Assembly (NCBI GenBank): GCA_041666915.1
Contig: JBAYFZ010000003.1
Coordinates: 22,394 to 86,393, forward strand
Length of the DNA stretch: 64,000 nucleotides
Direction: 5' to 3'
DNA from: Minisyncoccota bacterium
Lineage (GTDB): Bacteria > Patescibacteriota > Minisyncoccia > Phycocordibacterales > PALSA-1337
The translations under genes and the position numbers were made by a program. Below the pieces are notes generated by a model that was not told the origin of the DNA, ran no database searches, and saw nothing but the letters and a program-made list of their open reading frames with translations. Shown here one piece after another: positions 6,289 to 64,000 of the stretch. Position 1 is the first letter of the stretch. Every line of letters begins with the position of its first letter.

Positions 6289-6307
6289 TTAACCTATTAT
6301 AATCCCC

Positions 6308-6925: not shown

Positions 6926-6932
6926 GATATTT

Positions 6933-9082: not shown

Positions 9083-9087
9083 TCACT

Positions 9088-43036: not shown

Positions 43037-43628
43037 GGAAGTTTCTTCCGGAGGTGTAACCTCCGGAAAACAGTATTGGTGTTTGTTTACGAATCTCACC
43101 TAAATAATCTTTGAAGCTAGAGTACTCATAATTTTTAGAATAGGCCATTGCTTCCATGGCATGTTCCTTCTGAGCTTCTTTTGACATTTCTGGTTCCTTG
43201 ATCCCGTAAGGATTTAGATGGACATAATTGATTAGCTTATCAAGATAATCTTTTTCGTACACACCTTTTTCTTTGAACGATCCTTGCCAGATAGTTCCAG
43301 AATGATCGTATTTTTTGTTGTAATAACCAGAATAGCCAGTGCAGAATTTATGCATGAATTTAGTAATGTTTTCTGGAGGTGAAGCCTCCGGAAGTTTTAA
43401 GACGATATGGAAATGATTAGGCATTAAACAATAAGCGACAATATCAACAAGCGTACCTTTACGTTCAATTGAAAATATATCTTTTTCTCCGAAACCTTTG
43501 AGTTCAAAAGATTCGGTATTATTAGCTATATAGAGTAGTTTCAACATACGCCAATAGTCGCTGGCGTCATTAAAAATGACTGCTTTATGAGCTCCTCGGT
43601 TGTAGATATGATAGTAAATTTCTTTCAT
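43017..43628 (-). CDS. REP-associated tyrosine transposase (RAYT; IS200/IS605-like Y1 HuH transposase)
   Basis: HuH motif MPNHFHIVLKLPE. Catalytic Tyr region DYLDKLINYVHLNPYG and a downstream YSSF, as in E. coli RAYT (YIYINPVKHG...WPWSSF). It is flanked on both sides by REP palindromes. Confidence 0.75.
   Translation of the reverse strand: MKEIYYHIYNRGAHKAVIFNDASDYWRMLKLLYIANNTESFELKGFGEKDIFSIERKGTLVDIVAYCLMPNHFHIVLKLPEASPPENITKFMHKFCTGYSGYYNKKYDHSGTIWQGSFKEKGVYEKDYLDKLINYVHLNPYGIKEPEMSKEAQKEHAMEAMAYSKNYEYSSFKDYLGEIRKQTPILFSGGYTSGRNFPTPPTS
43046..43068. repeat. REP copy (terminator-like hairpin between convergent obg and RAYT)
   Basis: ttccggaggtgtaacctccggaa, 9 nt after the obg stop. Confidence 0.8.
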
Positions 43629-45516: not shown

Positions 45517-45768
45517 TTAATCTGTCAGATGTTGAACCATGAGTTTACGGACCTGCTTTTTCGTAGGCTTCTTCATTCCACGACTGACTTCTATTTCTAT
45601 AAGTAGTTTCTCTATATCAGATACTTTATAAACGCGGTAATTGTTGATAGGGTGACGTCCTGCTGAGAATTTACCGCTATTGTCCCAATTGCGTAATGTG
45701 AGAGGGGTAACACCCAATATCTCGGCTGCTTTCTGTATAGTTATAAGTTTTGTTTGAAGAATATCCAT
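45517..45768 (-). CDS. Small MerR-type HTH DNA-binding protein
   Basis: 83 aa. ITIQKAAEILGVTPLTLRNWDNSGKF...NYRVYKVSDIEKL fits the MerR N-terminal HTH. It is divergent from the surface-locus operon. Confidence 0.55.
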   Translation of the reverse strand: MDILQTKLITIQKAAEILGVTPLTLRNWDNSGKFSAGRHPINNYRVYKVSDIEKLLIEIEVSRGMKKPTKKQVRKLMVQHLTD

Positions 45769-46224
45769 AAAATTAAAGGTTAATAAACATTGATAATAGT
45801 TATTAAATATATATAAATTGAATAAAATGTAATCTAAAATTATGCAAATTCTGTCTAAATCGTATTAATGTTTATAAAGGGTAAAATAAGATAGAAAATT
45901 TTAATAAAAATTCATGATCAACTTTTAGCTTTACGTTTATAAGTTTAACATATTTATTAAGGTGCAACTCTTAAAAATGTGCATAAAGCCCTATAAACGA
46001 TTTTAAAGCCAAGTTTTGAATTGAAATTATTGTCTACTTGTAAAACCATCATATTTATTTATATCACACCTTATAATATTAGCCGTATATTTATTGTGTG
46101 AGTACTATTTATATACTAAGTTTATCCCTTCCTGATTAAAACAGGTCTCTACACGATCTAGTCGCCCGACTCTTTTAAGTATTGATATATCTTTCCCTAT
46201 AAATGAAATTACAGCCTCTGAGAT

Positions 46225-46247
46225 TTACGGAGGTTACACCTCCGGAA
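46225..46247. repeat. REP copy in inverted orientation, within the AT-rich 45769-46350 control region
   Basis: ttacggaggttacacctccggaa (loop tta/cac, the reverse of gtgtaac). Confidence 0.7.
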
Positions 46248-46350
46248 AAATTACTACATACCTTTTTTTATTTCTGTTTTATAATTTGTTGTCCACAGTT
46301 TTCCTGAATATTTTCGTTAAAGATTACGATATAATGATTAGCGAACCAAT

Positions 46351-47526
46351 ATGAAAGATAGCTTTATTATTGAAGGTAAAAAATACATCTCGTCTAGACG
46401 AGCTTCCGAAATCTCGGACTATGCTTCTGATTACATCGGACAACTTTGTCGAGCAGGAAAGTTGGATTGCAAAATGGTCGGACGTGCATGGTTCATTACC
46501 GAAGAGTCTCTCAGTCTACACAAAACAAATGTTCTCCAAGATGAAGTTGTCAGAAACAGGATTGAAAATCTCCGTGGAAAGAAAAATAGGAACTTGGTTG
46601 TAAGCTCAGAAGCAATTAAGACTTCCGCTTCTACACAGACTCAGACTTCAACCAATGTTGTAACAGTTACAAACTCCTCAATAGTTGTTAGTTCAAATCC
46701 TGTAATATCAAATCAACAAGCTCCTGTTGTTTCGGGGTCTACTCCTGCACAATCCAAAGTTTCTGGTTCATCATTTGTTTACACTTCTGATGAAAGGCCA
46801 TTGTTACCAGTATTGAAGAAGCCTGTTACACCAGTTGCGAATGTTTCTAAGAATAAAAAAATACTTTCATTCTTATCAAAGAATGAAAGTAAATCAGCTG
46901 TTACAAAAAATAGATCAGCTAGTGAGATCGCTGGAAAAGTTACAAAGTCTCTCAAGAAGTTAACTACAGTAGGAAAACCTATCATCTCATATCCAGAACT
47001 TACTCGTTCAATAATTTTGAGACGTGCACTTGCTTCAGCTCTAGTAATCATGTTCTTTATCGGTATGGGTACGATGACTTTCAATATTTTCAATAGTGAA
47101 GAAGTCTCGGTCGCAACCAATGCTTCTAGTTCTCCTAGTGTTGCATCGGGATCGGCCAGAGCAAATGTTTACGATGTGATAATGGTTGCTACTTCTTTTG
47201 TTAAAAATGGATTTGGCAATATTGCATCTTTGTTTACAAAAACATCAAAACTCACTCTCAACGATACATCTCCGCCAGATGGTTTTGGTGGTAGTCAAGG
47301 ACTATCACCAAATGGTTTAGCAGTCACATCATCAAGTGGTTCGGATAGTGTAGATGAAGCGGTTAAACAAAAGATTAAGGGTTCGTTTTCAGATGAAGTT
47401 GAAGTTAGTCCAGATGAGAGTGGTACAGCAGGTGTGATCACTCCAGTGTTTAGAGAGTCAAAAGGAAAAGATTTTATTTATGTAATGGTTCCGGTAGATG
47501 GTAAGGGGGCAAGCGTGACACCGTAA
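46351..47526 (+). CDS. Membrane-tethered protein: N-terminal Xis/HTH_17-like DNA-binding domain, S/T-rich linker, single TM, extracytoplasmic C-terminal domain
   Basis: N-terminus: KKYISSRRASEISDYASDYIGQLCRAGKLDCKMVGRAWFITEESL, which is an HTH_17 pattern. TM: ILRRALASALVIMFFIGMGTMTF at about aa 215-237. No known domain after the TM. Confidence 0.45.
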   Translation: MKDSFIIEGKKYISSRRASEISDYASDYIGQLCRAGKLDCKMVGRAWFITEESLSLHKTNVLQDEVVRNRIENLRGKKNRNLVVSSEAIKTSASTQTQTSTNVVTVTNSSIVVSSNPVISNQQAPVVSGSTPAQSKVSGSSFVYTSDERPLLPVLKKPVTPVANVSKNKKILSFLSKNESKSAVTKNRSASEIAGKVTKSLKKLTTVGKPIISYPELTRSIILRRALASALVIMFFIGMGTMTFNIFNSEEVSVATNASSSPSVASGSARANVYDVIMVATSFVKNGFGNIASLFTKTSKLTLNDTSPPDGFGGSQGLSPNGLAVTSSSGSDSVDEAVKQKIKGSFSDEVEVSPDESGTAGVITPVFRESKGKDFIYVMVPVDGKGASVTP

Positions 47527-47579
47527 AGTTTATCAAAAGACATAATGAGCCCTCTATTATAAAGATTTAAGGTAAAAAT

Positions 47580-48257
47580 ATGAAAAAAAATATTATCAGT
47601 GCAATATTGGAAATAGGAATAGGATTCTTTGCAATCTTCTGGATATTCCTATTTTTAGAACCAGCGATATTACAGGGTGCCCAGAACACCTTCACTATCG
47701 CGCAAACAGTCTCCAAAGAGATTTCCTTCACGACACCAGGGTCCAATGTAACCCTTTCTCCTTCTTTGGGAGGTTTGACTGGGGGTACAGCAACAGGCGA
47801 AACGCAGATAGTGGTGACTACTAACAGTAGTCTTGGGTACATGATGACTATCATGGCTAGTTCATCGGTAGGTATGATCGGTAATGCTAGTTCATCCAAT
47901 TCTATTCCAGCTTATGTAACAGCTACAGCAGGTGTTCCAGATTTTAGTTTTACTGTTCCAGCCAATAAGGCATATTTTGGTTATTCAGTTGAAGCGTCTA
48001 CGACTGCTGACCTAGCAACTTCTTTCAAAGACGCTGCTAGTGCTTGTGATTCTGCTGGTGGAAGTGATACTGCTGACAAATGTTGGATAGCAGCAACTTC
48101 AACAGCGTATACGGTAGTCAATAGAACTTGGCAGACGCCAGCTTCTGGAGCAACAACTACTTTGAAATTTAGAGTTACTATCAATGCCAATCCAAGTCCA
48201 GTTATCCCAGATGATACTTATGTTGCTACAACGACACTTACAGCGACTGCAAATTAA
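47580..48257 (+). CDS. Secreted/anchored beta-rich protein of unknown function (paralog of 49363-50178; WxL-like candidate)
   Basis: N-terminal hydrophobic signal/anchor MKKNIISAILEIGIGFFAIFWIFLF. Shares blocks with the downstream paralog (VTLSPSLGGLTGGTATGETQIVVTTNSS... / ...TTTLKFRVTINAN...TYVATTTLTATAN). Confidence 0.45.
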   Translation: MKKNIISAILEIGIGFFAIFWIFLFLEPAILQGAQNTFTIAQTVSKEISFTTPGSNVTLSPSLGGLTGGTATGETQIVVTTNSSLGYMMTIMASSSVGMIGNASSSNSIPAYVTATAGVPDFSFTVPANKAYFGYSVEASTTADLATSFKDAASACDSAGGSDTADKCWIAATSTAYTVVNRTWQTPASGATTTLKFRVTINANPSPVIPDDTYVATTTLTATAN

Positions 48258-48261
48258 AAAT

Positions 48262-49311
48262 ATGAAAAAAATCACGATTATAAACAAATTGAATACTGTC
48301 AATCTGAATAAGGTGCTAGCGATCCTTGCAATATTTGTAGTCGTAGTCGGTGTCTCCAATATGGTGTTGGCAAAAGTAGAAACATCCACCACGACAAGTC
48401 CTGTTACAGAAAAAGCAGTAGTCTCTTTTGAAACTTTGCCAGAAAATACAGTATTCAATGATTTTGTTGTTGGTCCAGGAAAAGTCCAGATAGATATTGC
48501 TCCTGGAGAATCAAAAACTTTTGAACTTACTATTGCGAACAGATTAGGTACAGAGAAAACTTTTTCAATCGTAGAAGAAGATTTCGTCGGCTCAAATGAT
48601 CCAGACAAAACTGTTGTCTTGTTGGGTAATGACCGTGGCCCATATTCGCTCAAGGATTATTTGAAGATAGGTACAAGTTCAATAGACATTCCTCATGCTG
48701 TAAAGTCTCGCGTCTTGATAACTGTATCTGTTCCTAAGAATGCTCAGCCAGGTGGTCTATATGGAAGTGTTGTCATCGGTACCGTGAGTAAGGCTGGTGA
48801 CAATTCTAGTTCAACCGGAGTCAATACAACTAATCCAATAATCACTCGTATAGGTACTTTGGTTTTTGTGAGAGTTGCTGGTGCAGTCAAAGAAAGTGGT
48901 GAGCTTACAGGTTTTATATTAGCTGGCAATCACAAGTTTATTTCTGGAGGAGAGCCTGTAGTCTTTGATCTTTTGTACAAGAATTCAGGAAATATTCACC
49001 TCAATCCAAGTGGAACAATAACTATAAACAATCTGCTTGGTTCAAATGTTGGAAATATAAAAGTTGAACCATGGTTTGCTATGCCAAATTCACTTCGCTT
49101 TCGTGAGGTTGAATGGAAAGCACCTTTTCTCTTTGGAAGATACACAGCTCATGCGGTCATAGAGAGAGGTTACGGTGACCTCAAAGATGAGATGAGTGTC
49201 ACATTCTGGATCGTGCCGTGGAAGATGATGTTGATGGTGATAGCGGGTCTGGTGGTTTTTATAGGATTAGTGAGATGGATATTCAAGAAGTTCAAGATAA
49301 CGAGAAAGTAG
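48262..49311 (+). CDS. Cell-surface protein with N-terminal signal peptide, two beta-sandwich-like regions and a C-terminal TM anchor plus basic tail (DUF916/DUF3324-like architecture)
   Basis: Signal AILAIFVVVVGVSNMVLA. APGESKTFELTIANR looks like a CARDB/DUF916-like strand. C-terminal WKMMLMVIAGLVVFIGLVRWIFKKFKITRK. The track ORF at 48184 overlaps the upstream gene; the ATG at 48262 follows its stop. Confidence 0.4.
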   Translation: MKKITIINKLNTVNLNKVLAILAIFVVVVGVSNMVLAKVETSTTTSPVTEKAVVSFETLPENTVFNDFVVGPGKVQIDIAPGESKTFELTIANRLGTEKTFSIVEEDFVGSNDPDKTVVLLGNDRGPYSLKDYLKIGTSSIDIPHAVKSRVLITVSVPKNAQPGGLYGSVVIGTVSKAGDNSSSTGVNTTNPIITRIGTLVFVRVAGAVKESGELTGFILAGNHKFISGGEPVVFDLLYKNSGNIHLNPSGTITINNLLGSNVGNIKVEPWFAMPNSLRFREVEWKAPFLFGRYTAHAVIERGYGDLKDEMSVTFWIVPWKMMLMVIAGLVVFIGLVRWIFKKFKITRK

Positions 49312-49362
49312 AAGGAAGAGGTAAGAGTTAAGAGGTAGGAGGTAAGAGTTAAGAAAGAAGCA

Positions 49363-50178
49363 ATGAACAAAAATTTCATTAAAAACTTAAGGAAAAATTC
49401 TTGTGATGTCGGATATCACAGCAAGTTTACCGTCTTAATCGTTACTGCCTTTTTTGTAGTTTCAATCTTTGGTCTATTGAATGTTGTCAACGCAGAGGTT
49501 ATGTCTAGCACAAATTACAAACTTGAAAATGACAGTATCAATTTTGGTGGAGGACGTGCCACTTCTACTTCTTATGTCATTGAAGATACTGCCGGAGAAA
49601 TTGCAACAGGTATGTCGTCTAGTACCAATTACATTATGAAAGCTGGTTATCAACAGACTCAAGATATCTACACAGTTTCAGTCACGCAATCTTCAAATGT
49701 AACAATGTCTCCTTCATTCGGAGGTGTTACCGGAGGTACAGCCAATGGACAGACATCCTTTACTGTAACTACCGACAATCCTGCTGGTTATTCAGCGACG
49801 ATCGCAGCAACTATGTCTCCAGCACTTAGGACATCGGCAGATAGTTTTACGGATTATGTTCCAGCTGGTGCGGTCCCTGATTTTACTTTTACGAACGCTT
49901 CAACAAATTCTTCTTTTGCCTTTACTCCAGAGAGTACTGATTTGGATGTTGATTATGAAGATTCTGGTGGAGTTTGTGGGGTTGCAGGAAGTGATACTGC
50001 AGATGCTTGTTGGAATGGTTTATCAACGACAGGAAAGACGATACTAAATAGAACTTCATCAAACAATCCATCTGGTACAGCGTCAACGATAAAGTTTAGA
50101 GCGGAATCAGGGAGTAATCATATACAAGTAGACGGAGTTTATATGGCAACGACAACGATTACGGTAGTGGCATTGTGA
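49363..50178 (+). CDS. Secreted beta-rich protein, paralog of 47580-48257
   Basis: Signal peptide TVLIVTAFFVVSIFGLLNVVNA. VTMSPSFGGVTGGTANGQTSFTVTTDNPAGYSATIAATMS. C-terminal ...TIKFRAESGSNHIQVDGVYMATTTITVVAL. Confidence 0.45.
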   Translation: MNKNFIKNLRKNSCDVGYHSKFTVLIVTAFFVVSIFGLLNVVNAEVMSSTNYKLENDSINFGGGRATSTSYVIEDTAGEIATGMSSSTNYIMKAGYQQTQDIYTVSVTQSSNVTMSPSFGGVTGGTANGQTSFTVTTDNPAGYSATIAATMSPALRTSADSFTDYVPAGAVPDFTFTNASTNSSFAFTPESTDLDVDYEDSGGVCGVAGSDTADACWNGLSTTGKTILNRTSSNNPSGTASTIKFRAESGSNHIQVDGVYMATTTITVVAL

Positions 50179-50234
50179 GGGTAAGGGATTAGAGGATAGA
50201 GAATTAGGGATTAGAAAAAGGGGGCAAAGAAGCA

Positions 50235-53200
50235 ATGAATAAAAATTTTATTAAAAACTTAGGAAAAAATATCATCAAGGTTGCACCTCGATGTTTTGTT
50301 ATCTTTACTTTAATTATTTCTTTCATTGTTTCTCCTTTGTCAGTTTTTGCCGTTCAGTCTACATTTACAACTTCTCTAACTACTACTGGAGTTGCTACAA
50401 CACCACCGGCAATACCTTCCAATCTTTTGGCTACCGCAGTCTCTGATACACAGATTGATCTTTCTTGGACAGCTTCGGTTCCGACATTCTACACAGTTAC
50501 TGGTTATAGGATTTTCCGTGATTCTGTATTTTTGGCCACAACTAGTTCAGTGGTTTATTCCGATACAGGTTTGACTCCAGAGACAGCTTATTCATATACA
50601 GTAGAAGCTTTTGATTCAATTATTCAATTGTCTGGACAGTCTGCCACTTCTACAGCTACAACTACAGCAACACCAGTTGTTCCTCCTGTAACTCCTCCAG
50701 TAACACCACCTTCTTCTGGTGGAGGAAGTTCGGGATCTTCAGTGATCAATATCACTGATATTAAGGTCGTCGCTGGAACAAATAATGCAAATATTTCATT
50801 TAAGACCAATGTATCAGCTCAGACGAAAGTCCAGTGGGGATTCTCAAATGATTTTGAAATCGGTTCCCTTCAAAATATTTTTTATGGAAAAGAACATTCT
50901 CAAATGATAAATGGTCTTGTTGAAGGTTTAACATATTTTGTCAGGATTACAGCTACCAATAGTCAAGGTATATCTACATATAGAGATATTTCTTTCAAGA
51001 CTGATCTTGCTGTAGTAGAACTTGGTCCTTTGCCAAACCCATCAAATTTCTTGGCACAAGCTACAGACAAAAATATCAATCTTACTTGGGACAATCCTAT
51101 AGATGAGAGATTCAATAATGTCAGAATAGTTCGTACAGAAGGATTTTTCCCAATAGATCAATTTGACGGTACTCCTATATATGAGGGTGATGGTCAATCT
51201 TTTGTAGATAAGAGTGCAAAAATCGGTACTACGTATTACTATGCTATTTTTGCAAAGGGTATAGATGGAGAATATTCTTCAGGTGCTTTGGCTCAAGCTC
51301 GCATCGCTCCAGCTGGAGAGATAGTAGTCTCGCCAACTTCAACAGATCCATTTATAAATATTCCAGAGTCAACAAATGTGGATCCGATGATCAAAAAGAT
51401 TACTTTGTCTGATTTTGAATTTATTCAAGAAGGGAAAAATCTTTCAGTTATCGGTAGTACGGTTGCTATAAAAGGTGGCGAAAATCTAACTATTCGTCTT
51501 GCATACAACAAAGTTCCTGAAATTTTGAAGACAGTTGCTTTCACCTTGCAAGATCCATCAGATAAAACAAAAGTCTTCCCATTTTTGTTACGTATCAATG
51601 CTGACAAGACTTACTATGAAGCGACTATTGGTGCTTTGGGTAAATCTGGTCGTTATGGAATGTCAGTAGTTATTTTGGATTATGAAAATAAAGGTTTGAA
51701 ACGTTTGAATGGAACTCTTGCTGCGCTTGCTTTCAATGCAATGCCTTTTGATTTCGGTAATAATTTTGATTTCTTGGGCATATTGTTGTTGCTCTTGGTA
51801 ATCATCCTTGTTATTTTGGCTATCGCATTGCTTCGTAAGTGGATCAATTATTCTCCAGAACATCAGACTGTAGACAAACCAAAAACTTCTGGAGTTACTA
51901 TTTCCAGAGATGTTTTCAATGCTATTTCAAAGATTTCAATATTTGTCTTGGTTGTTACGGCTTCATTCGGAATTCAACAAGCATTTGCTACTACTTTCAA
52001 TCCAGAGATAAATTATCAAGGTAAATTGACCGATAGTGTTGGTTCAAATGTTGCCAATGGTTCATATAGTATTCGTTTCAAACTTTATACGACCTTGTCT
52101 GGAGGTTCACCTATTTGGACTGAGACATGGTGTAACACTTCAACTTGTGATGGTTTGGGTACAGGTGCGGATAGTAGAATAACTTTGACTAGTGGATTAT
52201 TTAGCACCATGCTTGGAAGTACGACTGCTTTAGATGGCATTGATTTCAATCAGCCTCTATATCTCGGTGTTGAGATCGGAGGTTCTGGAGCAACGGCTTC
52301 ATGGGATGGGGAAATGTCACCTCGTAAGATTCTCGGAGCTGTCCCTTCCGCATTTTATTCCGCAACTTCTACGGTGGCTCTTTCTGCAAATTCTGCTGAC
52401 ACCTTATCTGGATTGAATTCTTCACAATTCCTTCGCTCTGATATACAAAATGCTACTTCATCATCTTCAACTTTCTTCAGTGTCTTACAATCTGGTGCTG
52501 GTAAGATTGCAGAATTTTTTGGGAGCGCAGCACAAAGTGTCTTTTCAATTTTATCAAATGGTAATGTCGGAGTCGGAACAACTACTCCATCATCTAGGTT
52601 TAATGTTTATGGTGACGTATCTTTCCAAACTCCATCAAATTCAGCCACAGCTTTTCAGATACTAAACTCGGCCACCAGTTCGGTTTTCTCTGTAGCTACT
52701 ACAGGCTTTGGTACTACTACTTTAGCTGGTCTAACTATTTCTGGTTCAGCTACTTCTACCTCTAACGTAGGTTGGAATATCTCCACGGGATGTTTTGCAG
52801 TCAACGGTGTCTGTTTGAGTGGTGCAGATGGTACGGCCAGTTCCACTCTATTATCTGATACCAACACATGGACAGGTTTGAATGTCTTTGGTTATGCAAG
52901 TACCACTCAGATCAGTTCAACAGGAAATGCTTATCTTGCTACGACTGGTGGGAATGTTGGTATCGGCACCACTTCGCCATTCGCAAAATTTGCAATCAAT
53001 CCAATTGCTGGTGATGGGGCGTCATTCGTCATTGGTTCTTCTACTAGAACAGATTTTATAGTTACAAATGAAGGAATGATTGGGGTTGGAAGCACGAGCC
53101 CTTCTGCAATTTTCAGTATCTTAGGACGAAACGGCAAGACACAAGGTACGGCGGAAACTAGGATTGCACCAACAGCTCTCTATGTTCAAGGAGGAACCGG

Positions 53201-56200: not shown

Positions 56201-59200
56201 CGGCAACAGTACCATTAATATTTCGGCTACTGCCACTTCAACCTTTGGTACGGGAATAGATTTAAGAACAGGTTGTTTCGCCATTAACGGCGTCTGTTTG
56301 AGCGGTGCAGACGGTACAGCAAGTTCTACACTTTTGTCTGATACTAATACTTGGACAGGTTTGAATGTCTTTGGTTACGCAAGTACCACGCAGATCAGTT
56401 CAACAGGAAATGCTTACTTTGCAACGACTGGAGGAAAGGTAGGAGTTGGAACAACTTCGCCATTCTCAACCCTTTCTGTTTCTACTCCTGCACAACAGAG
56501 CGGGTCATTACCACTTCTTACAGTAGCTTCTACGACTGGTGCGACGCTATTAACTGTTTTGGGAAATGGGAATGTGGGGATTGGAACAATGAATCCAGCG
56601 TATCCATTAGATGTTAATGGAAGTGTGAACGCAGCCTCTTATAGAACAAGTAATGTGATTTCTCTTATATTAGCAAATTCTGCTATAAATATAGGAGATA
56701 CTTATGGAAGTACTTATCCTCTTGTAGTTAATGCTGGTGGTTCAGAAAGGATGAGAGTCTCGACTGGTGGCAACGTCGGCATCGGCACCACCTCTCCATA
56801 TTCCAAACTCTCCGTCTGGGGTGCTTCAACAGGAACAAACAGAATGTTTGAATTAACCAACAGTGCTTCAACAACACTCATGAGTATGTTGGAAAATGGC
56901 ACAGGCTATTTCTTGGGTAATATTGGAATTGGAACAACTTCACCATACGCGAAACTTTCAGTGGTTGGTCCGGTAGTGGCTGAATATTTCTATGCAACCT
57001 CCACAACAGCAACTTCAACATTTGCTGGTGGGCTTGATGTAGGAAATGGTGGACTTGTTTATGAGGCTTCTACAGGTATCACTTCAGCTTCTTCATTCCA
57101 AATGGGTAACTTAAGTTTTGATCTCAATGCAGGTGCTGTATCTTGGATAGATCTTCCAATAGATAGTAGTGCCCCAGCAAATACACCACAGAGTTACACT
57201 GCCAACTTGAACGGTTTGCCAATGCTCACTATCGGAGGTCTTTCTGATGGTGCTGGGAATATTATAAATGCTGGTATCGGAATCGGTACAACTACCTCAT
57301 ATTCCAAACTCTCCGTCTGGGGTTCTTCAACAGGAACAAACAGAATGTTTGAATTAACCAACAGTGCTTCAACAACACTCATGAGTATGTTGGAAAATGG
57401 CACAGGATATTTCTTGGGTAATATTGGAATTGGAACAACCACCCCAGGTACACTCCTTTCTCTTGGAAATACCGGCAACAGTACCATTAATATTTCAGCT
57501 ACTGCCACTTCAACATTTGGTACAGGAATAAATCTAAGAACAGGTTGCTTCGCCGTCAACGGAATTTGTGTCGGTGGTGCAGATGGTACAGCAAGTTCTA
57601 CTCTACTATCAGACACCAACACATGGACAGGTTTGAATGTCTTTGGGTATGCCTCTTCAACACAATTCACAACAACGGCTGATACATATCTTGCGACATT
57701 GGGAGGCAATGTTGGCATTGGTACGACAAGTCCTGTCAGTAAGTTTTCAGTTGATGGGACTTCTAGCTTTAGTGGCTACACTATCATTGGTGGAACATCA
57801 CTTATAGATAATTCAGTTCCTCTTAATGTCATAGCTGATGGTTATTTTGGTACAGCAGGTAAGATAGCAAACTTTATTTCCAATCAAGATTATGGACATG
57901 TGGGTATATTCAAAGATGATAATTCTCGCGGATTGTTCCTCGGTTACGGTACTGGTAATTTGCTAGCAGGTAATGATAATGATGCTTTTATACAGATTGG
58001 AGCCGCATCAAGTAGTCGTGGTTACCTCCATTTGGTTGATGGTGTAGGTGCTGGTTCTGATGGTCAATTCGGTCTAATGAGTCCTTATGTTCTCATTGGA
58101 GCTTCTACTGCAAATGGAAGTGGCTCAGTCTTACAAGTTGAAGGCTTGTCTACTCTTGTTGGTAATGTTGGTGTTGGAACGACTTCACCTTTGGCAAGAT
58201 TGGATGTTGCCGGAGTCTTGGGTTCTCAAGCAGATTTATTCAATGTTTCTTCAACGACAGCAACAGATATAGTCTCAAGTCTATTTAAAGTTTCTGCAAA
58301 TGGTAATGTTACTATCGGTTATTTGAATGGTTCTCTCCAAGCTGTCAACGGAGTAGTTTCTGCAACTTCAACACTTTCAATTGCTTATGGAGGTACAGGT
58401 ACATCTACATCTCCAACATATGGAAAATTACTTATGGGTGATGGTACTGGAAAATATGACTTAGTTGCAACTTCAACATTGGGAATTTTGGGTGCTAGTG
58501 CTATTGCATTGGGTACACCTGGTCAGATACCTTATTACTCTGCAAATTTGCAAGCAGTTTCTGCAACTTCTTCTATATTTATAAATCAGACAAATAGTTT
58601 TATTGGTATCGGTACAACTACTCCTACCTCAGCTTTGTCAGTCTTCAACGCTTCCGCTCCTCAATTCCAGCTCGCATATAACACGAGTAATTACATGAAT
58701 GTCGGGGTTTCTTCTACTGGTGGAGTTACAATGGCAGTCAATGGTTCTCTCGGAGGCTTTGCTATCACAAATCCTCAACCGACCGTTGTTGGTAGTGGTA
58801 CAGGTACAAATGCTCCTCTAGGTTTCTCTGTAGCCGGTGGTATCGGAGGAAATTCAAATGATACAAATATTGGTGTTGGTGGTATCGGTGGCGGTTTGCA
58901 ACTTACAGCTGGTGTTGGAGGTTCCGCAGGACTTTCTACTTTCTCAGAGACAGGTGGTGCTGGAGGTGCAGTATCTATGCTTGCTGGTGCTGGAGGTGCA
59001 ACGGCTTCTCCTAGTATTGATTTTATGTCTAGAGTTGCAGGTAACGGAGGTCTCATGACTTTGGCTGGTGGTGCTGGAGGTAATGCTTCAAATGGTGGTC
59101 TAGCAAGTTCTAATACTGCTGGTAATGGTGGAGCTTTCACTTTGAAAGGTGGTGCTGGAGGTAATGCTAGTGGTGCTACAACCAATAATGGTGGTGCTGG

Positions 59201-62200
59201 AGGGAGTCTATATATATCAGGTGGTGCTGGAGGTACAGGTTCTACTGCAAATGGTACTGCTGGTAATCTTTATCTCGGTTATGATTCTTCAAGCGCTCTT
59301 GGTAATGTTTATTTCGGCAATCAGGGTGCCTCGTACATTACAAGTACAGGGAATTTTGGAGTTGGTACCACTTCTCCTTTCAGTAAACTTTCAGTTTCTA
59401 CTTCTGCTCAACAGGATGGATCAACGCCACTCTTTACAGTAGCTTCTACTACAAGTGCTTCGTTATTTACAGTTTTGGGAAATGGGAATGTTGGGATTGG
59501 GACAAATAATCCAACAAAGCTTTTTATTGTCGCGTCTGGAGCAAACACAGTTATGAGTATGAATTCTTCGGGTCTATTGAATATAGCAACTTATCTTCAA
59601 CTTAATGGTGGAACCGCTGTTTCTTATAGTGGTACACAGTTACAGTTGGGTACTGGTTTTACTACGCAATATTTACCAGGCAACGTCGGCATCGGCACCA
59701 CCACTCCATTAGCCAAACTTAACATCTACGGCGACGTGGTTTTCCAGACTCCAACCAATTCAGCCACGGCTTTCCAGATACTGAACGCGGCTACCAGCTC
59801 GGTCTTCTCTGTAGCTACCACCGGCTTTGGCACTACTACTTTGGCTGGTCTAAATATCTCCGGTTCAGCTACTTCTACTTCTAACGTAGGTTGGAATATT
59901 ACATCCGGTTGTTTTGCCATTAACGGCGTCTGCGTAGGAGGTGGTGCAGGCGCAGGTGATGGTACAGCAAGTTCTACTCTTTTGTCTGATAATAATACTT
60001 GGACAGGTTCTAATATATTCAATAGTAATGTTGGAATTGGTACCACCTCACCATTCTCAACTCTTTCTGTTTCTACTTCTGCACAACAAAATGGAGCATC
60101 ACCACTCTTTACAGTAGCTTCTACGACTGGTGCGACGTTATTAACTGTTTTGGGAAATGGGTATGTTGGAATTGGTAAATCTAATCCAACGGTTGCTTTG
60201 GATGTGACAGGGGGAATATCTGCTAGTGGAAATATTGCTGCTGGTGGAGCCTTATATGCGGGTGGTGTTTACGGCTTGATATGGAATGGTCGTAGTAGTA
60301 TTTATTCAACTGCTGATGGTCAATTTTCTTTCTATAATAACGCTGGAACATCTTTTTCAAGAATTAATCTTGGAGGAACCACTTCAGCTTTTCCTGCAAT
60401 TGGGGCTTCTGGATCTAATCTTATAGTCCAGTCTGCTGATGGAACACTTGGCACTAATTTAGGAGTAGGCACCTCCTCCCCATACTCCAAACTCTCCGTC
60501 TGGGGTTCTTCAACAGGAACAAACAGAATGTTTGAGCTAACCAACAGTGCCTCAACAACACTTATGAGTATGTTGGAAAATGGTACAGGCTATTTCTTGG
60601 GTAATGTTGGAATTGGTACAACTTCTCCTTATGCAAAACTTTCAGTAGTTGGTCCAGTAGTGGCTGAATACTTCCATGCAACTTCTACAACAGCAACCTC
60701 AACATTTGCTGGTGGTTTTGATGTAGGTAGTGGTGGACTTACTTACGAACAGGGTTCAGGTATTACTTATATCAGTTCTCTACAGACTTCTAATTTCAAT
60801 TTTGAAACAAATGCAGGTATGGTCTCATGGGTAGATCTTCCTACAGATTCCAATGCTCCAAGCGGTACAGTCCAGAGTTATTCAGCAGGTCTAAACGGAA
60901 GTTCAACACTTACTATATATGGTATATCAGATGGTGCTGGTAATCTTCAATCTGATTGGCCGAGAGTATCTATCGGAGGTACATCTGCAGGTACGACTAC
61001 ACCTAGTTCAAAATTGACAGTTTTTGGTAATGGTACTGGAACAGGAGGAATATTTGAGCTTGTAGATAGTGCCTCAACAACACTTATGAAAGTTTTGAAT
61101 AATGGAAGTGTCGGTATCGGCACAACCTCTCCAGGTACTCTTCTTTCTCTCGGAAACACTGGAAACAATACAATCAACATCTCAGCTACTGCCACTTCAA
61201 CCTTTGGCACAGGAATAAACCTAAGAACAGGATGTTTTGCTGTTAATGATGTTTGTATAGGTGGCGGTGGTGGTGCAGGCGACGGCACATCAAGTTCTAC
61301 TCTACTATCTGATTACAACACATGGACAGGTTTGAATGTCTTCGGATATGCAAGTACCACACAGATCAGTTCAACTGGAAATGCTTACTTTGCTACAACA
61401 GGTGGAAAGGTAGGAGTTGGAACAACTTCACCATTCTCAACTCTTTCAGTTTCTACTTCTGCACAACAAGATGGAGCATTACCACTCTTTACAGTGGCTT
61501 CTACTACTGGAGCTTCGTTACTTACAGTTTTGGGAAATGGGTATGTTGGTATCGGAACAGCAAGCCCAACAAATGTTCTTGATGTCAGTGGAACATTCAA
61601 ATCTAGTGGCCAATCAATAGTCGCTGACGCCTTCCGTTTCTATACAGGCAACAGTGATGCTGGTACCTCATACAGTGATTTTAGAACAAATCCTGCAACC
61701 GGTAATGCAATACTTAGCGCAAAGTCTGGAGCTGTCTATTTCAACTACGATCACGGCAATCAAGGAGTCATCTTTTCAAACGGATCTCAAGCTACGGTAG
61801 CTACTATAAATAGTACTGGACACGCAGTGTTCTATGGTACGGGTGATAACTCATTTGCAGGAGAATTGGGCGTTGGTACAACCACTCCATATTCCAGACT
61901 TTCAGTTTGGGGGGCTTCAACAGGAACAAATAGGATGTTTGAATTAACAAACAGTGCTTCAACAACACTCATGAGTGTATTGGAAAATGGTACAGGTTAT
62001 TTCTCAGGAAATATTGGAATAGGAACAACCACCCCAGGTTCTATCCTTTCTTTGGGTGATACTGGCAGTAACACCATCAACATCTCAGCCACAGCCACTT
62101 CAACATTTGGCACAGGTATAAACCTAAGAACAGGATGTTTTGCTGTTAATGATGTTTGTATAGGTGGCGGTGGTGGTGCAGGCGACGGCACATCAAGTTC

Positions 62201-64000
62201 TACTCTATTATCTGATTACAATACATGGACAGGCTTGAATGTCTTCGGATATGCAAGTACCACACAGATCAGTTCAACAGGAAATGCTTACTTTGCTACA
62301 ACTGGTGGCAATGTCGGTATCGGTAGCACTTCACCATTTGCAAAACTTTCTATTCACGCCGGAGCAACTGATACTTATAACTCCACCTTGTTTGCAATCG
62401 CTTCTTCTACCAGTGCTTATGCCACAACCACTCTCTTTAGTGTCTTAGCAAACGGCAGTATAAGCATGGGTACTTCTACAGCAACGACTACTATCGCTGG
62501 TGGATTTAATGTTGGAAATGGTGGTCTTATCTACGAAGCTTACACAGGTATTACTTCAGCTTCTTCACTCCAAACAGGAAACTTCAATTTTGAAACAAAT
62601 GCCGGTGCTGTATCATGGGCAGAACTTGTCATAGATTCTGGCGCTCCTGCAAATACACCACAGAGTTATACTGCTCATTTGAATAGTGCGCCAATGCTTA
62701 CTATCGGAGGTCTTTCTGATGGTGGAGGTAATATTACAAATGCCGGAGTAGGTATCGGTACGACTTCTCCTTGGGGTAGTTTTGCAATCTCACCATTTAC
62801 AACCACATACCCAGCTTTCAATATTGGTACGACAACAGCAACATTCACTGGTTCATACTTTATGGTTAGCGGTACTGGAAATGTGGGAATTGCTACATCT
62901 TCACCATACGCAAAACTTTCTATCCAAGGAGCAACTTCTGGTACTACACCTTTGTTTGCAATTTCTACTTCAACCAATGCCTCACCATCTCTACAAATTG
63001 ATCAGAATGGACTTTTGACAATGAATACACCCGGAGCAACTTCTACTATCACTGGTAACTTACAGGTCATAGGCGGTTTCCGTGCAGACAATACCTATAC
63101 TGGTGATCTATTCTTCGCAAACAACTTCAGCTTCACTGAAGCACAACCTATCAATTCAACCACTACTCAGGCTTTGTATTTAAAGAGTCAAAAAGGCGAG
63201 AGAGTTTTGTCTATTGACGATCTAGGAAATGTAAATATTTCTGGAGACATTTGTTCAAATAATGTCACTTGTGTCAGTCAGTCATTGAGTAAATTGTCTG
63301 GAGATATGAGTTCTTTGGCTTCAAGTACAGCTGATATGCAAGCGGGTATTGATGGTCAGATCAAGACAACCTCTTCGTCAGTACAAAGTCTAGCCGACGC
63401 TATCGTAGCTTTGGATTTGAAAGTTGATGCAATATTAGCTTCAAGTACTTTGAATATGGAACTTCTCGTAGCTTCAACTAGCGCTACTGTTGCTTCAAAC
63501 TTGGCTTCAAGTACAGAATTTGTTACTGCTGTCTCTTCTTCAACAGCTTCTGTTTTGACTTCAAATCCTTCATTTGTTGCCGTTGTCGCAGAGGCGGTCA
63601 AAAATATTATTTCTTCAGCAGGTGATTGGGTCGTAGACAGATTTACGGCCAAGGTCGCTTATATCAATCGTGTTGAAGCAGGAACAGTCGCTATCTCCAA
63701 AGGTATGGAAATCGTAGATCAGGCTTCTGGTGCAGTATGGTGTGTAACTATCAAGAATGGTGATTGGAATAAGATTCAAGGTACATGTGCTAGTGTTCCT
63801 CTTCCAGAAGTTGCAACTTCAACAATACCAGTAGTTCCAGAGAATCCTGCGATAGTCACTCCAAATCCAGTAGTAATTCCAGTAGAACCTGTAGTTAATC
63901 CTATTCAAGCAAGTTCAACTCCTCCTGTTGTTGCAACGAGTACACCTCCAGTTTCTGAACCAATCCCAACTCCAGATCCAACACCATCTCCAATTACAGA
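50235..64000 (+). CDS. Giant repetitive fibrous surface protein (more than 4,580 aa in the window, 3' end beyond the window). It has a signal peptide, 2 FN3-like domains, an internal TM hairpin, seven FG-GAP repeats and many tail-fibre-like GNVGIGTTSP beta-helix repeats
   Basis: Frame 0 from the ATG at 50235 was read by hand up to about 57.4 kb with no stop; continuity to the window end is inferred from the recurring in-frame repeat blocks. N-terminal signal CFVIFTLIISFIVSPLSVFA. FN3-like LLATAVSDTQIDLSWTA...YSYTVEAFD. TM GILLLLLVIILVILAIALL, then a second hydrophobic segment ISIFVLVVTASFGIQQAFA. Seven FG-GAP repeats SAGDVNGDGYGDVIVGA...RGQAYIFYG (54.5-55.8 kb). More than 20 repeats of ...PFSKLSVST.AQQ.G.LPLFTVASTT.ASL.TVLGNGNVGIGT. 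Confidence 0.7.
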   Translation, partial: MNKNFIKNLGKNIIKVAPRCFVIFTLIISFIVSPLSVFAVQSTFTTSLTTTGVATTPPAIPSNLLATAVSDTQIDLSWTASVPTFYTVTGYRIFRDSVFLATTSSVVYSDTGLTPETAYSYTVEAFDSIIQLSGQSATSTATTTATPVVPPVTPPVTPPSSGGGSSGSSVINITDIKVVAGTNNANISFKTNVSAQTKVQWGFSNDFEIGSLQNIFYGKEHSQMINGLVEGLTYFVRITATNSQGISTYRDISFKTDLAVVELGPLPNPSNFLAQATDKNINLTWDNPIDERFNNVRIVRTEGFFPIDQFDGTPIYEGDGQSFVDKSAKIGTTYYYAIFAKGIDGEYSSGALAQARIAPAGEIVVSPTSTDPFINIPESTNVDPMIKKITLSDFEFIQEGKNLSVIGSTVAIKGGENLTIRLAYNKVPEILKTVAFTLQDPSDKTKVFPFLLRINADKTYYEATIGALGKSGRYGMSVVILDYENKGLKRLNGTLAALAFNAMPFDFGNNFDFLGILLLLLVIILVILAIALLRKWINYSPEHQTVDKPKTSGVTISRDVFNAISKISIFVLVVTASFGIQQAFATTFNPEINYQGKLTDSVGSNVANGSYSIRFKLYTTLSGGSPIWTETWCNTSTCDGLGTGADSRITLTSGLFSTMLGSTTALDGIDFNQPLYLGVEIGGSGATASWDGEMSPRKILGAVPSAFYSATSTVALSANSADTLSGLNSSQFLRSDIQNATSSSSTFFSVLQSGAGKIAEFFGSAAQSVFSILSNGNVGVGTTTPSSRFNVYGDVSFQTPSNSATAFQILNSATSSVFSVATTGFGTTTLAGLTISGSATSTSNVGWNISTGCFAVNGVCLSGADGTASSTLLSDTNTWTGLNVFGYASTTQISSTGNAYLATTGGNVGIGTTSPFAKFAINPIAGDGASFVIGSSTRTDFIVTNEGMIGVGSTSPSAIFSILGRNGKTQGTAETRIAPTALYVQGGTGGGGSSIPGGKGADIILIAGNGASSALGDGNGGSLTFTAGNGGATDGSGVGGNVTINPGLTGGGGNGKIVLADLRGNVGVGTTSPFSKLSVSTPAQQSGSLPLFTVASTTSASLLTVLGNGNVGIGTAVPTSVLDVNGNINATTMIAGTHLLVQNTGIYYDSVSNGAYSFANSGVDLALKTASVGTVMTIKDAGLVGIGTSTPYSKLSVWGSSTGTNRMFELTNSASTTLMSMLENGTGYFLGNIGIGTTTPGTILSLGNTGDSTINLSVTATSTFGTGINLRTGCFAVNGTCVGGADGTSSSTLLSDTNTWTGLNVFGYASTTQISSTGSAYFATTGGNVGVGTTSPFSKLSVSTSAQQSGTLPLFTVASTTSASLFTVLGNGNVGIGTSTVSEKLFVEGNIAPSMTNLYTAGSYTLNSAVASVANITASGIANSDLLGVSSASAGDVNGDGINDVIIGATAADGAGTDRGQAYIFFGSTTPRTTFAPASADVILSGSEDSGSFGTSVASAGDVNGDGYGDVIVGATNVAGGGSYRGQTYIFYGGPNFTGAIIASSANVIISGAADYDSNGQVVASAGDVNGDGYGDVIMTALSADDGGFDRGQAYIFYGKPNLASTYTTANADVIISGNTDGVQMGNSVASVGDVNGDGYGDVIIGAQSADVGGNNRGQAYIFYGKPNLASAYSASSANVIVTGMVDMGFMGISSASAGDVNGDGYSDFIIGASSAAGGGTSRGQAYVFYGKSNLASTYSASSANVTISGIANSDALGYSVASAGDVNGDGYGDIIVGAVGAAGGGTSRGQAYIFYGKSDLSSTYTASSADVAFSGIATSDAFGSSVTSAGDINNDGYSDVMVGAYGAAGGGTSRGQTYIFTPTGNRFKSIYAQSGSFTKGIQLGGGMSTLNAYGLSSLSQFSLNTADWSISKSGTSSMQSLIVSGNVGIGTTSPFSTLSVSTPVQQSGLLSLFTVASTTGASLFSVLGNGNIGIGTTTPGTLLSLGNTGNSTINISATATSTFGTGIDLRTGCFAINGVCLSGADGTASSTLLSDTNTWTGLNVFGYASTTQISSTGNAYFATTGGKVGVGTTSPFSTLSVSTPAQQSGSLPLLTVASTTGATLLTVLGNGNVGIGTMNPAYPLDVNGSVNAASYRTSNVISLILANSAINIGDTYGSTYPLVVNAGGSERMRVSTGGNVGIGTTSPYSKLSVWGASTGTNRMFELTNSASTTLMSMLENGTGYFLGNIGIGTTSPYAKLSVVGPVVAEYFYATSTTATSTFAGGLDVGNGGLVYEASTGITSASSFQMGNLSFDLNAGAVSWIDLPIDSSAPANTPQSYTANLNGLPMLTIGGLSDGAGNIINAGIGIGTTTSYSKLSVWGSSTGTNRMFELTNSASTTLMSMLENGTGYFLGNIGIGTTTPGTLLSLGNTGNSTINISATATSTFGTGINLRTGCFAVNGICVGGADGTASSTLLSDTNTWTGLNVFGYASSTQFTTTADTYLATLGGNVGIGTTSPVSKFSVDGTSSFSGYTIIGGTSLIDNSVPLNVIADGYFGTAGKIANFISNQDYGHVGIFKDDNSRGLFLGYGTGNLLAGNDNDAFIQIGAASSSRGYLHLVDGVGAGSDGQFGLMSPYVLIGASTANGSGSVLQVEGLSTLVGNVGVGTTSPLARLDVAGVLGSQADLFNVSSTTATDIVSSLFKVSANGNVTIGYLNGSLQAVNGVVSATSTLSIAYGGTGTSTSPTYGKLLMGDGTGKYDLVATSTLGILGASAIALGTPGQIPYYSANLQAVSATSSIFINQTNSFIGIGTTTPTSALSVFNASAPQFQLAYNTSNYMNVGVSSTGGVTMAVNGSLGGFAITNPQPTVVGSGTGTNAPLGFSVAGGIGGNSNDTNIGVGGIGGGLQLTAGVGGSAGLSTFSETGGAGGAVSMLAGAGGATASPSIDFMSRVAGNGGLMTLAGGAGGNASNGGLASSNTAGNGGAFTLKGGAGGNASGATTNNGGAGGSLYISGGAGGTGSTANGTAGNLYLGYDSSSALGNVYFGNQGASYITSTGNFGVGTTSPFSKLSVSTSAQQDGSTPLFTVASTTSASLFTVLGNGNVGIGTNNPTKLFIVASGANTVMSMNSSGLLNIATYLQLNGGTAVSYSGTQLQLGTGFTTQYLPGNVGIGTTTPLAKLNIYGDVVFQTPTNSATAFQILNAATSSVFSVATTGFGTTTLAGLNISGSATSTSNVGWNITSGCFAINGVCVGGGAGAGDGTASSTLLSDNNTWTGSNIFNSNVGIGTTSPFSTLSVSTSAQQNGASPLFTVASTTGATLLTVLGNGYVGIGKSNPTVALDVTGGISASGNIAAGGALYAGGVYGLIWNGRSSIYSTADGQFSFYNNAGTSFSRINLGGTTSAFPAIGASGSNLIVQSADGTLGTNLGVGTSSPYSKLSVWGSSTGTNRMFELTNSASTTLMSMLENGTGYFLGNVGIGTTSPYAKLSVVGPVVAEYFHATSTTATSTFAGGFDVGSGGLTYEQGSGITYISSLQTSNFNFETNAGMVSWVDLPTDSNAPSGTVQSYSAGLNGSSTLTIYGISDGAGNLQSDWPRVSIGGTSAGTTTPSSKLTVFGNGTGTGGIFELVDSASTTLMKVLNNGSVGIGTTSPGTLLSLGNTGNNTINISATATSTFGTGINLRTGCFAVNDVCIGGGGGAGDGTSSSTLLSDYNTWTGLNVFGYASTTQISSTGNAYFATTGGKVGVGTTSPFSTLSVSTSAQQDGALPLFTVASTTGASLLTVLGNGYVGIGTASPTNVLDVSGTFKSSGQSIVADAFRFYTGNSDAGTSYSDFRTNPATGNAILSAKSGAVYFNYDHGNQGVIFSNGSQATVATINSTGHAVFYGTGDNSFAGELGVGTTTPYSRLSVWGASTGTNRMFELTNSASTTLMSVLENGTGYFSGNIGIGTTTPGSILSLGDTGSNTINISATATSTFGTGINLRTGCFAVNDVCIGGGGGAGDGTSSSTLLSDYNTWTGLNVFGYASTTQISSTGNAYFATTGGNVGIGSTSPFAKLSIHAGATDTYNSTLFAIASSTSAYATTTLFSVLANGSISMGTSTATTTIAGGFNVGNGGLIYEAYTGITSASSLQTGNFNFETNAGAVSWAELVIDSGAPANTPQSYTAHLNSAPMLTIGGLSDGGGNITNAGVGIGTTSPWGSFAISPFTTTYPAFNIGTTTATFTGSYFMVSGTGNVGIATSSPYAKLSIQGATSGTTPLFAISTSTNASPSLQIDQNGLLTMNTPGATSTITGNLQVIGGFRADNTYTGDLFFANNFSFTEAQPINSTTTQALYLKSQKGERVLSIDDLGNVNISGDICSNNVTCVSQSLSKLSGDMSSLASSTADMQAGIDGQIKTTSSSVQSLADAIVALDLKVDAILASSTLNMELLVASTSATVASNLASSTEFVTAVSSSTASVLTSNPSFVAVVAEAVKNIISSAGDWVVDRFTAKVAYINRVEAGTVAISKGMEIVDQASGAVWCVTIKNGDWNKIQGTCASVPLPEVATSTIPVVPENPAIVTPNPVVIPVEPVVNPIQASSTPPVVATSTPPVSEPIPTPDPTPSPIT

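Follow-up and report, generated by a model that had tools for sequence, protein, structure and literature searches.

A conserved gene cassette of Paceibacteria encodes a WxLIP-like anchored protein and pilin-like proteins of a probable usher-less surface fibre

The gene cassette described here, which spans positions 45517 to 64000 of a 64,000-nucleotide stretch of a Minisyncoccota bacterium genome (assembly GCA_041666915.1, contig JBAYFZ010000003.1, positions 22,394 to 86,393; hereafter, the window), has its closest described counterparts in two surface systems. The first is the Pam pilus of Candidatus Mycosynbacter amalyticus, a bacterium of the candidate phyla radiation (CPR) in the class Saccharimonadia (Troman et al., bioRxiv 10.64898/2026.03.03.709456). 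In the Pam model, the transmembrane (TM)-anchored chaperones PamC/D, held by a C-terminal helix, stand in for the usher; the resolved filaments are those of PamA and PamB, each with a nine-strand N-terminal sandwich along with a linker strand plus a truncated immunoglobulin (Ig) C-terminal domain; PamT is the tip, a position predicted by modelling; and PamR, an FnIII protein that has a TM helix plus one more strand at its N terminus, ends and anchors the filament (bioRxiv 10.64898/2026.03.03.709456). The same preprint names Saccharimonadia and Microgenomatia as the classes in which Pam is most prevalent and makes no mention of WxL, DUF916, or Paceibacteria. The second system is the WxL cluster of Firmicutes, which comprises small WxL proteins, large WxL proteins, and WxLIP, the last consisting of DUF916, DUF3324, and a TM helix; at least one WxLIP and at least two WxL proteins encoded adjacently define such a cluster, and an unstructured hairpin of WxLIP is reported to turn into a strand by which the beta-sandwich of WxL is completed (Hassan et al. 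2023, PMC10599100).

We consider it probable, with moderate confidence, that the cassette of the window, made up of open reading frames (ORFs) 1 to 7, specifies, for a monoderm CPR bacterium, a donor-strand surface fibre assembled with a chaperone but no usher, next to a giant adhesin with which it is fused here. The original prediction for this DNA, made from the sequence of the window, had proposed a cell surface system at this locus, and all of the genes that it named were found at the coordinates that it gave. It had counted three small secreted beta-rich proteins plus a membrane-anchored partner; there are in fact two such proteins, ORF3 and ORF5, and the anchored partner, ORF4.

The cassette is real and strongly conserved. 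Database searches returned 346 relatives of ORF5 at E values of ≤0.001 and 811 relatives of ORF4, and a scan of one genome per species placed ORF5 relatives in 225 genomes. By their record titles, most of these genomes belong to CPR bacteria of the Parcubacteria/Paceibacteria type (Taylor-, Nomura-, Kaiser-, and Zambryskibacteria, for example). The title of many others reads just "uncultured Candidatus Saccharibacteria," while the label on two short contigs is a non-CPR one. Gene order was studied in the best 80 loci of the 225 genomes, and counts were made on the 61 loci with enough upstream DNA. Among the 80 loci the recurrent order is Obg, GatB, MerR (minus strand), ORF2, ORF3, ORF4, ORF5, a next gene in the position of ORF6, and a giant gene. 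ORF4 lies upstream of ORF5 in 57 of the 61 loci, and the next gene directly follows ORF5 in 58; ORF3 was found in 41, and the MerR gene in the same position, together with ORF2, was detectable in 43. The arrangement is far beyond chance. A more distant clade has ORF3-ORF4-ORF5-ORF6 followed by GAPDH, with the giant genes upstream; because the four-gene core is kept where the giant genes lie elsewhere, it is a module in its own right. The original prediction had suggested a search for synteny in related genomes, and it stands on this point, the more so as the small proteins match no well-characterized unrelated family. Nearly all proteins of the cassette are annotated as hypothetical, with a few ORF4 relatives named DUF916.

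ORF4 (positions 48262 to 49311, plus strand; 349 amino acids [aa]), the proposed membrane-anchored chaperone, starts with a signal peptide and has a TM helix at its C-terminal end, followed by a basic tail. A metagenome-assembled genome of Candidatus Paceibacterota encodes a hypothetical protein (P0121) with 100% identity to it. The expectation that this protein would be a DUF916-like anchored partner was confirmed by several comparisons. The Pfam model PF06030 (WxLIP_PGBD, formerly DUF916) matched ORF4 itself with an E value of 0.0017 (18.8 bits, under the cut-off of 27.3 bits) and matched 30 of the 32 ORF4 family members at E values of <0.01. The family profile matched the solved Enterococcus faecium WxLIP1 (EfmWxLIP1; 9i25_C and 9i1y_A) at 2.5e-8, and an hhalign comparison of the family with Firmicute WxLIPs, represented by five plasmid-derived sequences, gave a probability of 95.8% and an E value of 8e-9 over the DUF916 domain. 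This alignment ends after the first domain. For DUF3324 the outcome was divided: a second beta-sandwich and the TM helix were modelled as such a partner would have them, and neither ORF4 nor its 32 relatives matched PF11797.

The AlphaFold2 model of ORF4 (mean predicted local distance difference test score [pLDDT], 80) consists of a signal helix, two beta-sandwiches, of which the first is DUF916/WxLIP_PGBD-like, and a TM helix at aa 321 to 344. A Foldseek search with this model returned WxLIP 9i25_C at the top (3.4e-12), followed by RbmA and then by chaperones of chaperone-usher systems (CfaA, CsuC, EcpB, Caf1M, PapD, CupB2, YadV, and DraB). ORF4 is thus genuinely homologous to DUF916/WxLIP and has two domains folded in the manner of PapD. 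Conservation within the family is highest in EEDF.GS.DP.QTVVLLGDDRGPYSLKDY, at about aa 105 to 135, and the loop of aa 110 to 128 inside this stretch has pLDDT values of <50 in the monomer model. By analogy with the WxLIP hairpin, this conserved loop may complement a pilin fold. The resemblance to WxLIP, which is the only sequence-level homology of ORF4, also suits a static WxL-type complex, in which ORF4, as a permanent membrane anchor, would hold one ORF3 or ORF5 by strand complementation, as has been proposed for WxLIP and WxL, and in which ORF6 and the giant protein would be independent and merely co-regulated; the solved structure 9i25 is, after all, that of a WxLIP bound to a long WxL.

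What ORF4 would hold are ORF3 (47580 to 48257, plus strand; 225 aa), a secreted, single-domain, pilin-like protein, and ORF5 (49363 to 50178, plus strand; 271 aa), which is also secreted. They are paralogues, as had been predicted, with 40% amino acid identity (E=6e-35) and a profile-profile E value of 6e-50. ORF5 consists of a signal peptide, a region of about 55 aa with three S-S-x-N-Y motifs, and an Ig domain at about aa 101 to 271 with two invariant cysteines; the S-S-x-N-Y region is almost invariant in the ORF5 family and missing from ORF3. The modelled ORF5 folds like a chaperone-usher pilin, with CsuA/B, CupE, CfaB, FimG, and PapK as its nearest structures. Such pilins dominate its structural match lists, at the level of fold only and with no sequence similarity, and no sequence relatives of the pilin family were found in the PDB. 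The pilin domain of ORF3 is assigned by its sequence kinship with ORF5.

Neither protein is a WxL domain. PF13731 matched neither ORF3 nor ORF5, nor any of 33 ORF5 relatives, and hhalign comparisons with WxL alignments, one of 8 sequences from plasmid-borne clusters and one of 62 database homologues, gave probabilities of <1%, in agreement with the earlier remark that WxL motifs were not evident. A three-motif look-alike to WxL (S.[LI][DN]FG; DN..G[YW]..; Y.TT.T[WV].L) failed the profile comparison. A sequence relative of ORF5 was found instead in the Pam pilus. The NCBIfam model NF058579, "CPR-type pilus protein PamT," matched ORF5 at aa 24 to 150 (E=1.5e-11; 44.2 bits) and all 33 of the ORF5 relatives (best E value, 3.3e-14), all far under the equivalog cut-off of 240 bits, and on this account ORF5 is a distant homologue of PamT and not an equivalog. 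Pam-named NCBIfam models, among which only the PamT model is known in the library, gave no match at E values of ≤1 to ORF3, ORF4, or ORF6, and none matched the relatives of ORF3 and ORF6.

These results bear on the idea that ORF3 and ORF5 self-assemble without a chaperone, as fibres like those of TasA or of archaeal bundling pili, with ORF4 as an RbmA-like matrix protein or anchor. RbmA does stand second in the structural matches of ORF4; the match lists of ORF5 are nevertheless dominated by chaperone-usher pilins, and ORF4 combines DUF916 sequence homology with structural matches to many PapD-family chaperones. In addition, no gene for a SipW-type peptidase or TapA-like protein was found among the 7 locus proteins and 11 further window ORFs scanned (about 30 others were left unscanned), and the adjacency of ORF4 and ORF5, as well as their fusions, points to a direct partnership. 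We therefore hold self-assembly to be improbable and return to the chaperone-assisted fibre.

The fusions came to light when the ORF5-module profile was run against the representatives of 1.84 billion protein clusters (50% identity); 1,771 proteins matched at E values of ≤1e-3 and 253 at ≤1e-30. Of the 150 best matches, 142 reach the end of the profile, and in every one of these the module ends at most 4 residues from the C terminus. There are 48 representatives of at least 330 aa, 16 with an ORF4-like part in front and 32 with other parts. The module is C-terminal in a 2,187-aa repeat protein and in a 1,205-aa protein with Laminin_G_3 and fn3 domains, and in a 472-aa protein a Laminin_G_3 domain is inserted into the S-S-x-N-Y region of an ORF5-like module (proteins with lectin or giant partner parts: P0369, P0442, P0348, and P0324). 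To judge from these sequences, the ORF5-like module is a C-terminal attachment module. Its placement is like that of the pilin domain in FimH-type two-domain tip adhesins and like that of the WxL domain, which is always C-terminal in "large WxL" proteins and likewise occurs in small and large proteins.

Fusions of an ORF4-like with an ORF5-like part have about 520 to 610 aa (P0141, P0161, P0199, P0334, and others) and contain a hairpin of a TM segment plus a signal peptide, as does the ORF6-ORF7 frame described below. For one of them, P0161 (L090/L091, 4001 to 5740), no in-frame stop is present at the DNA level in two independent assemblies, which rules out gene-calling read-through as the cause of that one fusion. 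A chaperone joined to its pilin would suit the permanent 1:1 pairing of a static WxL-type complex, as would the absence of ORF3 from many loci and the lack of two-domain major pilins.

The donor-strand reading draws support from the mature N termini of ORF3 and ORF6, which have a short amphipathic strand in common (consensus, xEDQF[T][IV]xQ). The strand of the window reads AQNTFTIAQTV in ORF3 and VQSTFTTSLTT in ORF6, where it precedes a Pro-rich linker and the first FN3 domain and is conserved in about 60 relatives. The best ungapped BLOSUM62 score of the ORF3 strand against the ORF6 N terminus averaged 21.3 within genomes versus 17.3 between genomes, and none of 5,000 to 10,000 pairing shuffles attained the observed within-genome mean; DQFTVKQ/DQFTVKQ and DQFEIHQ/DTFEVHQ are examples of such pairs. 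In the control, ORF3 strands scored 8.7 to 9.6 against the N termini of ORF4 or ORF5, with no within-genome excess. Since the strand is shared and co-varies within genomes, we infer that the ORF3 and ORF6 strands fit the same partner. A static WxL-type complex leaves unexplained this co-varying strand, present in ORF3 and the FN3 anchor and absent from ORF4 and ORF5, and likewise the place of ORF6 directly after ORF5 in 58 of 61 loci. Moreover, the small proteins are not WxL domains, the modelled ORF5 has a chaperone-usher pilin fold, and ORF5 is kin to PamT, which has been proposed to form part of the Pam pilus. We accordingly give the static complex a minor share of the probability, larger than that of self-assembly, and prefer the donor-strand fibre.

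The giant protein of the original prediction, an adhesin of more than 4,580 aa, is only in part what it seemed: the open frame does run from position 50235 to the end of the window, over 4588 codons, and it holds two fused genes rather than one. In about 60 of the 80 relatives ORF6 is a separate gene for a protein of about 510 to 560 aa in which FN3-like domains lie between a signal peptide and a C-terminal TM helix with its basic tail, and ORF7 begins just after it with a signal peptide of its own. The stop codon between the two is missing in the window and in close relatives. The ORF6 part (50235 to 51854, plus strand; aa 1 to 540), the proposed membrane anchor and terminator with a PamR-like architecture, comprises a signal peptide, the N-terminal beta-strand, the Pro-rich linker, about three FN3-like domains (with fn3 matches), one further conserved domain that is provisionally Ig-like, and a TM helix at aa 507 to 540. 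ORF6 as a second DUF916-like protein was considered and rejected on a negative hhalign result. At the junction (51855 to 51989, plus strand), recognized from a hydrophobicity scan and the sequence, this helix is followed by a short, basic, cytoplasmic loop and an internal signal-peptide-like segment at aa 560 to 578 ending in ...QQAFA|TTFNPEINYQGKL. The resulting hairpin holds both parts outside the cell, and signal peptidase could cut ORF6 from ORF7 at the internal segment, the predicted site being just behind ...QQAFA (aa 585).

The ORF7 part (51990 to 64000, plus strand, running off the window) is a giant tail-fibre-like repeat protein and the proposed adhesin, with more than 4,000 aa inside the window. 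It contains 25 motifs of the NVGIGT type, seven LLSDxNTWTG modules, and seven FG-GAP repeats (Pfam, 6e-46) with Ca motifs at aa 1435 to 1837 (nucleotides ~54,540 to 55,750), a run that probably forms a beta-propeller. It matches the PHROG tail-fibre families 9942 (7e-18) and 18345 and, weakly, the Bdellovibrio fibre Bd2133. In relatives, the C terminus of ORF7 is acidic or Pro-rich low-complexity sequence with no TM segment and no sortase signal. Also in relatives, a small conserved family of 170 to 210 aa with an N-terminal TM segment and the C terminus ...ATWKF[EIF] adjoins the giant fibre genes (L020, 15933 to 16481; L023, 14990 to 15613; L081, 4316 to 4837 and 6305 to 6856).

The PHROG matches, together with an IS200-like gene 2 kb upstream, might suggest that unrelated surface proteins or a degraded mobile or phage element have come together here by chance. 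No other phage genes are present, however, the locus does not stand out from the remainder of the window in its G+C content, and true fusions join neighbouring genes, ORF4 with ORF5 and ORF6 with ORF7. Above all, the conservation of the order beside obg and gatB in dozens of species-level genomes effectively refutes a chance assembly, which we regard as highly improbable, even beside chaperone-free self-assembly.

The fibre that we favour would be built as follows. All structural proteins carry signal peptides and would be exported by Sec, and ORF4 would be retained in the membrane via its C-terminal helix. The loop of its DUF916-like domain would then complete the presumably incomplete Ig-like fold of ORF3 and ORF5; this complementation is proposed because ORF4 is homologous to WxLIP, which does the same to WxL, and has a PapD-like fold. 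The ORF4 strand would subsequently give way to the N-terminal strand that the next subunit brings. ORF5 would act only as an acceptor and sit at the distal end, because it has the acceptor domain and lacks the donor strand, and its relatives carry lectin or giant adhesin heads. ORF3, as proposed donor and acceptor, would be able to extend the fibre because it has both strand and domain, and ORF6 would terminate the fibre and tie it to the membrane, because it has the strand only, on an FN3 stalk with a TM anchor. ORF7 would act as a long-range adhesin next to the anchor, here covalently joined to ORF6 via the TM hairpin. Strand complementation, the order of subunits, the length of the polymer, regulation by ORF1 and ORF2, and a role in host attachment are what we infer from these data.

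Several observations weigh against this model. Shared genome ancestry inflates the significance of the strand co-variation, the direction of which is unaffected. ORF4 also resembles RbmA, a fold assigned to the anchor of the Pam pilus and not to its chaperone. The PamT match of ORF5 is well under the cut-off (44 versus 240 bits) and covers the N-terminal half only, and the model assigns no role to the nearly invariant S-S-x-N-Y region of ORF5. ORF3 is missing from about one third of the loci, and ORF4 is also not nearby in 4 of the 61. Finally, the locus has no two-domain major pilin of the PamA/PamB type, so a long filament is not assured.

Upstream of the structural genes lie two presumed regulators and a spacer. 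ORF1 (45517 to 45768, minus strand; 83 aa) is the small divergent MerR-type helix-turn-helix (HTH) gene that had been foreseen (Pfam MerR, 1.9e-8; MerR_1, 7.9e-8; HTH_17, 6e-7), and the AT-rich region of about 580 bp next to it measures 582 bp (45769 to 46350), with a G+C content of 25.8% versus 37.3% for the whole window. It is presumably a promoter/operator region. Promoter-like sites in it are at or below shuffle expectation, and a search of this spacer for regulatory RNAs and repeats found none and no Rfam match.

ORF2 (46351 to 47526, plus strand; 391 aa) was described as an HTH_17 protein with a single TM segment and an extracytoplasmic tail. The single TM segment is there, at aa 219 to 248 within a Ser/Thr-rich linker; the HTH_17 assignment is not sustained, as no Pfam HTH family matched at E values of ≤1, Pfam and NCBIfam both failed to detect an HTH_17 protein, and ORF2 has no similarity to ORF1. 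An alignment of 54 relatives places the conserved parts at both ends, namely an HTH-like cytoplasmic N terminus, the profile of which weakly matches the HTH protein AM32 (E=0.007), and a small extracellular C-terminal motif of about 60 aa (sFSDEv.V.PD..GT.GVITPVFK...G.D.LYVLVPV) that resembles two beta-strands. Their position suggests that MerR-type ORF1 and membrane-bound, HTH-like ORF2 may control expression of the cassette, and, as pure speculation, the C-terminal motif of ORF2 could link the assembly of the fibre with the HTH-like domain in the cytoplasm.

The surroundings of the cassette are housekeeping genes (SecA, MurB, Obg, and GatB) and genes for glycan synthesis. GatB (43915 to 45498, minus strand) has 527 aa in the window versus 472 to 504 aa in relatives, and the extra length is a Ser/Thr/Asn-rich low-complexity insertion (SGTNDSTGTTDSTENVSSNTNTEKNNSADKKGSIGSDAKSSG). 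The IS200-like Y1 transposase gene (43017 to 43628, minus strand; Pfam Y1_Tnp, 5.6e-8) shares 20 nucleotides with the 3' end of obg and is missing at that site in relatives, where gatB directly follows obg. A large glycan-synthesis cluster at about 10000 to 35400 encodes GT2 enzymes, PMT_2, a Wzt-like ABC ATPase (30496 to 31776, minus strand), and a protein with Wzy_C and TPR (33140 to 35401); within it, at 25 to 31 kb, the G+C content falls to 0.30 to 0.33. At the start of the window (7 to 1827, plus strand) lies a gene for a TraG/VirD4-like type IV secretion coupling protein with the domains TraG-D_C and T4SS-DNA_transf. No Rfam family reaches its gathering score anywhere in the window, and hence no tRNA or riboswitch was detected in it.

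Paceibacteria belong to the most abundant of the uncultured bacteria, and to our knowledge the mode of their attachment to hosts is not known. The cassette would carry the principle of the Pam pilus over to a further CPR class, pared down to pilins of a single domain, and it offers a testable model for a conserved surface organelle whose relatives occur in 225 species genomes and in 1,771 protein clusters (50% identity). This model predicts the complementing loop of ORF4, the donated N-terminal strands, the distal subunit, and cleavage at the internal signal peptide of the anchor-fibre protein. The homology of ORF4 is the first sequence-level bridge that we have found from the pilus-type chaperones of CPR bacteria to the DUF916/WxLIP proteins that Gram-positive pathogens and commensals have; a full-text literature search for DUF916 together with CPR terms found nothing. 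It is conceivable, as a tentative view more doubtful than the fibre itself, that WxL clusters, Pam pili, and the Paceibacteria cassette are branches of one ancient monoderm machinery, in which a chaperone of the DUF916 type, anchored in the membrane, passes C-terminal pilin modules to a likewise anchored FN3 stalk by way of an N-terminal donor strand. If so, its modules, bare or bearing lectin heads or else adhesins that exceed 2,000 aa, would be a general means of fastening adhesins to cells without sortase substrates or an outer membrane, and the cassette would be a core host-attachment organelle of Paceibacteria.

Compared with classical chaperone-usher pili (Pap/Fim, CFA/I, and the archaic Csu/CupE), the cassette is alike in the Ig-like pilin fold of ORF5, in the PapD-like ORF4, and in the proposed set of an acceptor-only tip, often with a lectin head, a donor-plus-acceptor subunit, and a terminator. 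CPR bacteria are monoderm. There is thus no outer membrane here, nor does any protein of the locus match an usher family, and for these two reasons the system is not a classical chaperone-usher system. It differs further in that the chaperone is membrane anchored and not soluble, the terminator doubles as the membrane anchor, and none of its proteins has sequence similarity to chaperone-usher proteins.

The analogy with WxL loci drawn in the original prediction holds for ORF4 and for the overall logic and fails for the small proteins, which are not WxL domains. ORF4 is homologous to WxLIP in sequence and in fold, having a signal peptide, two Ig-like domains, and a TM helix, and both proteins have in the first domain a conserved loop that is modelled with low confidence when alone. 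The order of small protein, anchored partner, and large surface protein is also the same. In contrast, the locus does not encode two WxL-domain proteins (PF13731, two W-x-L motifs), and because the definition of the clusters calls for two WxL proteins, it is not a member of that family.

The Pam pilus is the nearest counterpart, so that "undescribed," the other part of that claim, needs qualification: ORF5 matches PamT and the architecture parallels that of Pam, and the class of the host goes unmentioned in the Pam preprint. Both systems belong to monoderm CPR hosts and have no usher. [quoted passage not shown] Unlike the Pam locus, this one has no two-domain pilins of the PamA/PamB/PamE type, which may be encoded elsewhere in the genome, and ORF3, with its one domain, is the sole candidate here that could polymerize. 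Further differences are the host class (Paceibacteria), a genomic context of obg-gatB instead of ATP synthase, the presence of two HTH genes, and the fusion of the anchor to a giant fibre. Since PamA/B/E-type pilins are absent and the PamT match is far under the cut-off, the cassette falls short of a full Pam operon. In its mode of action it would be closest to Pam, and the lineage of its chaperone is common with that of WxLIP.

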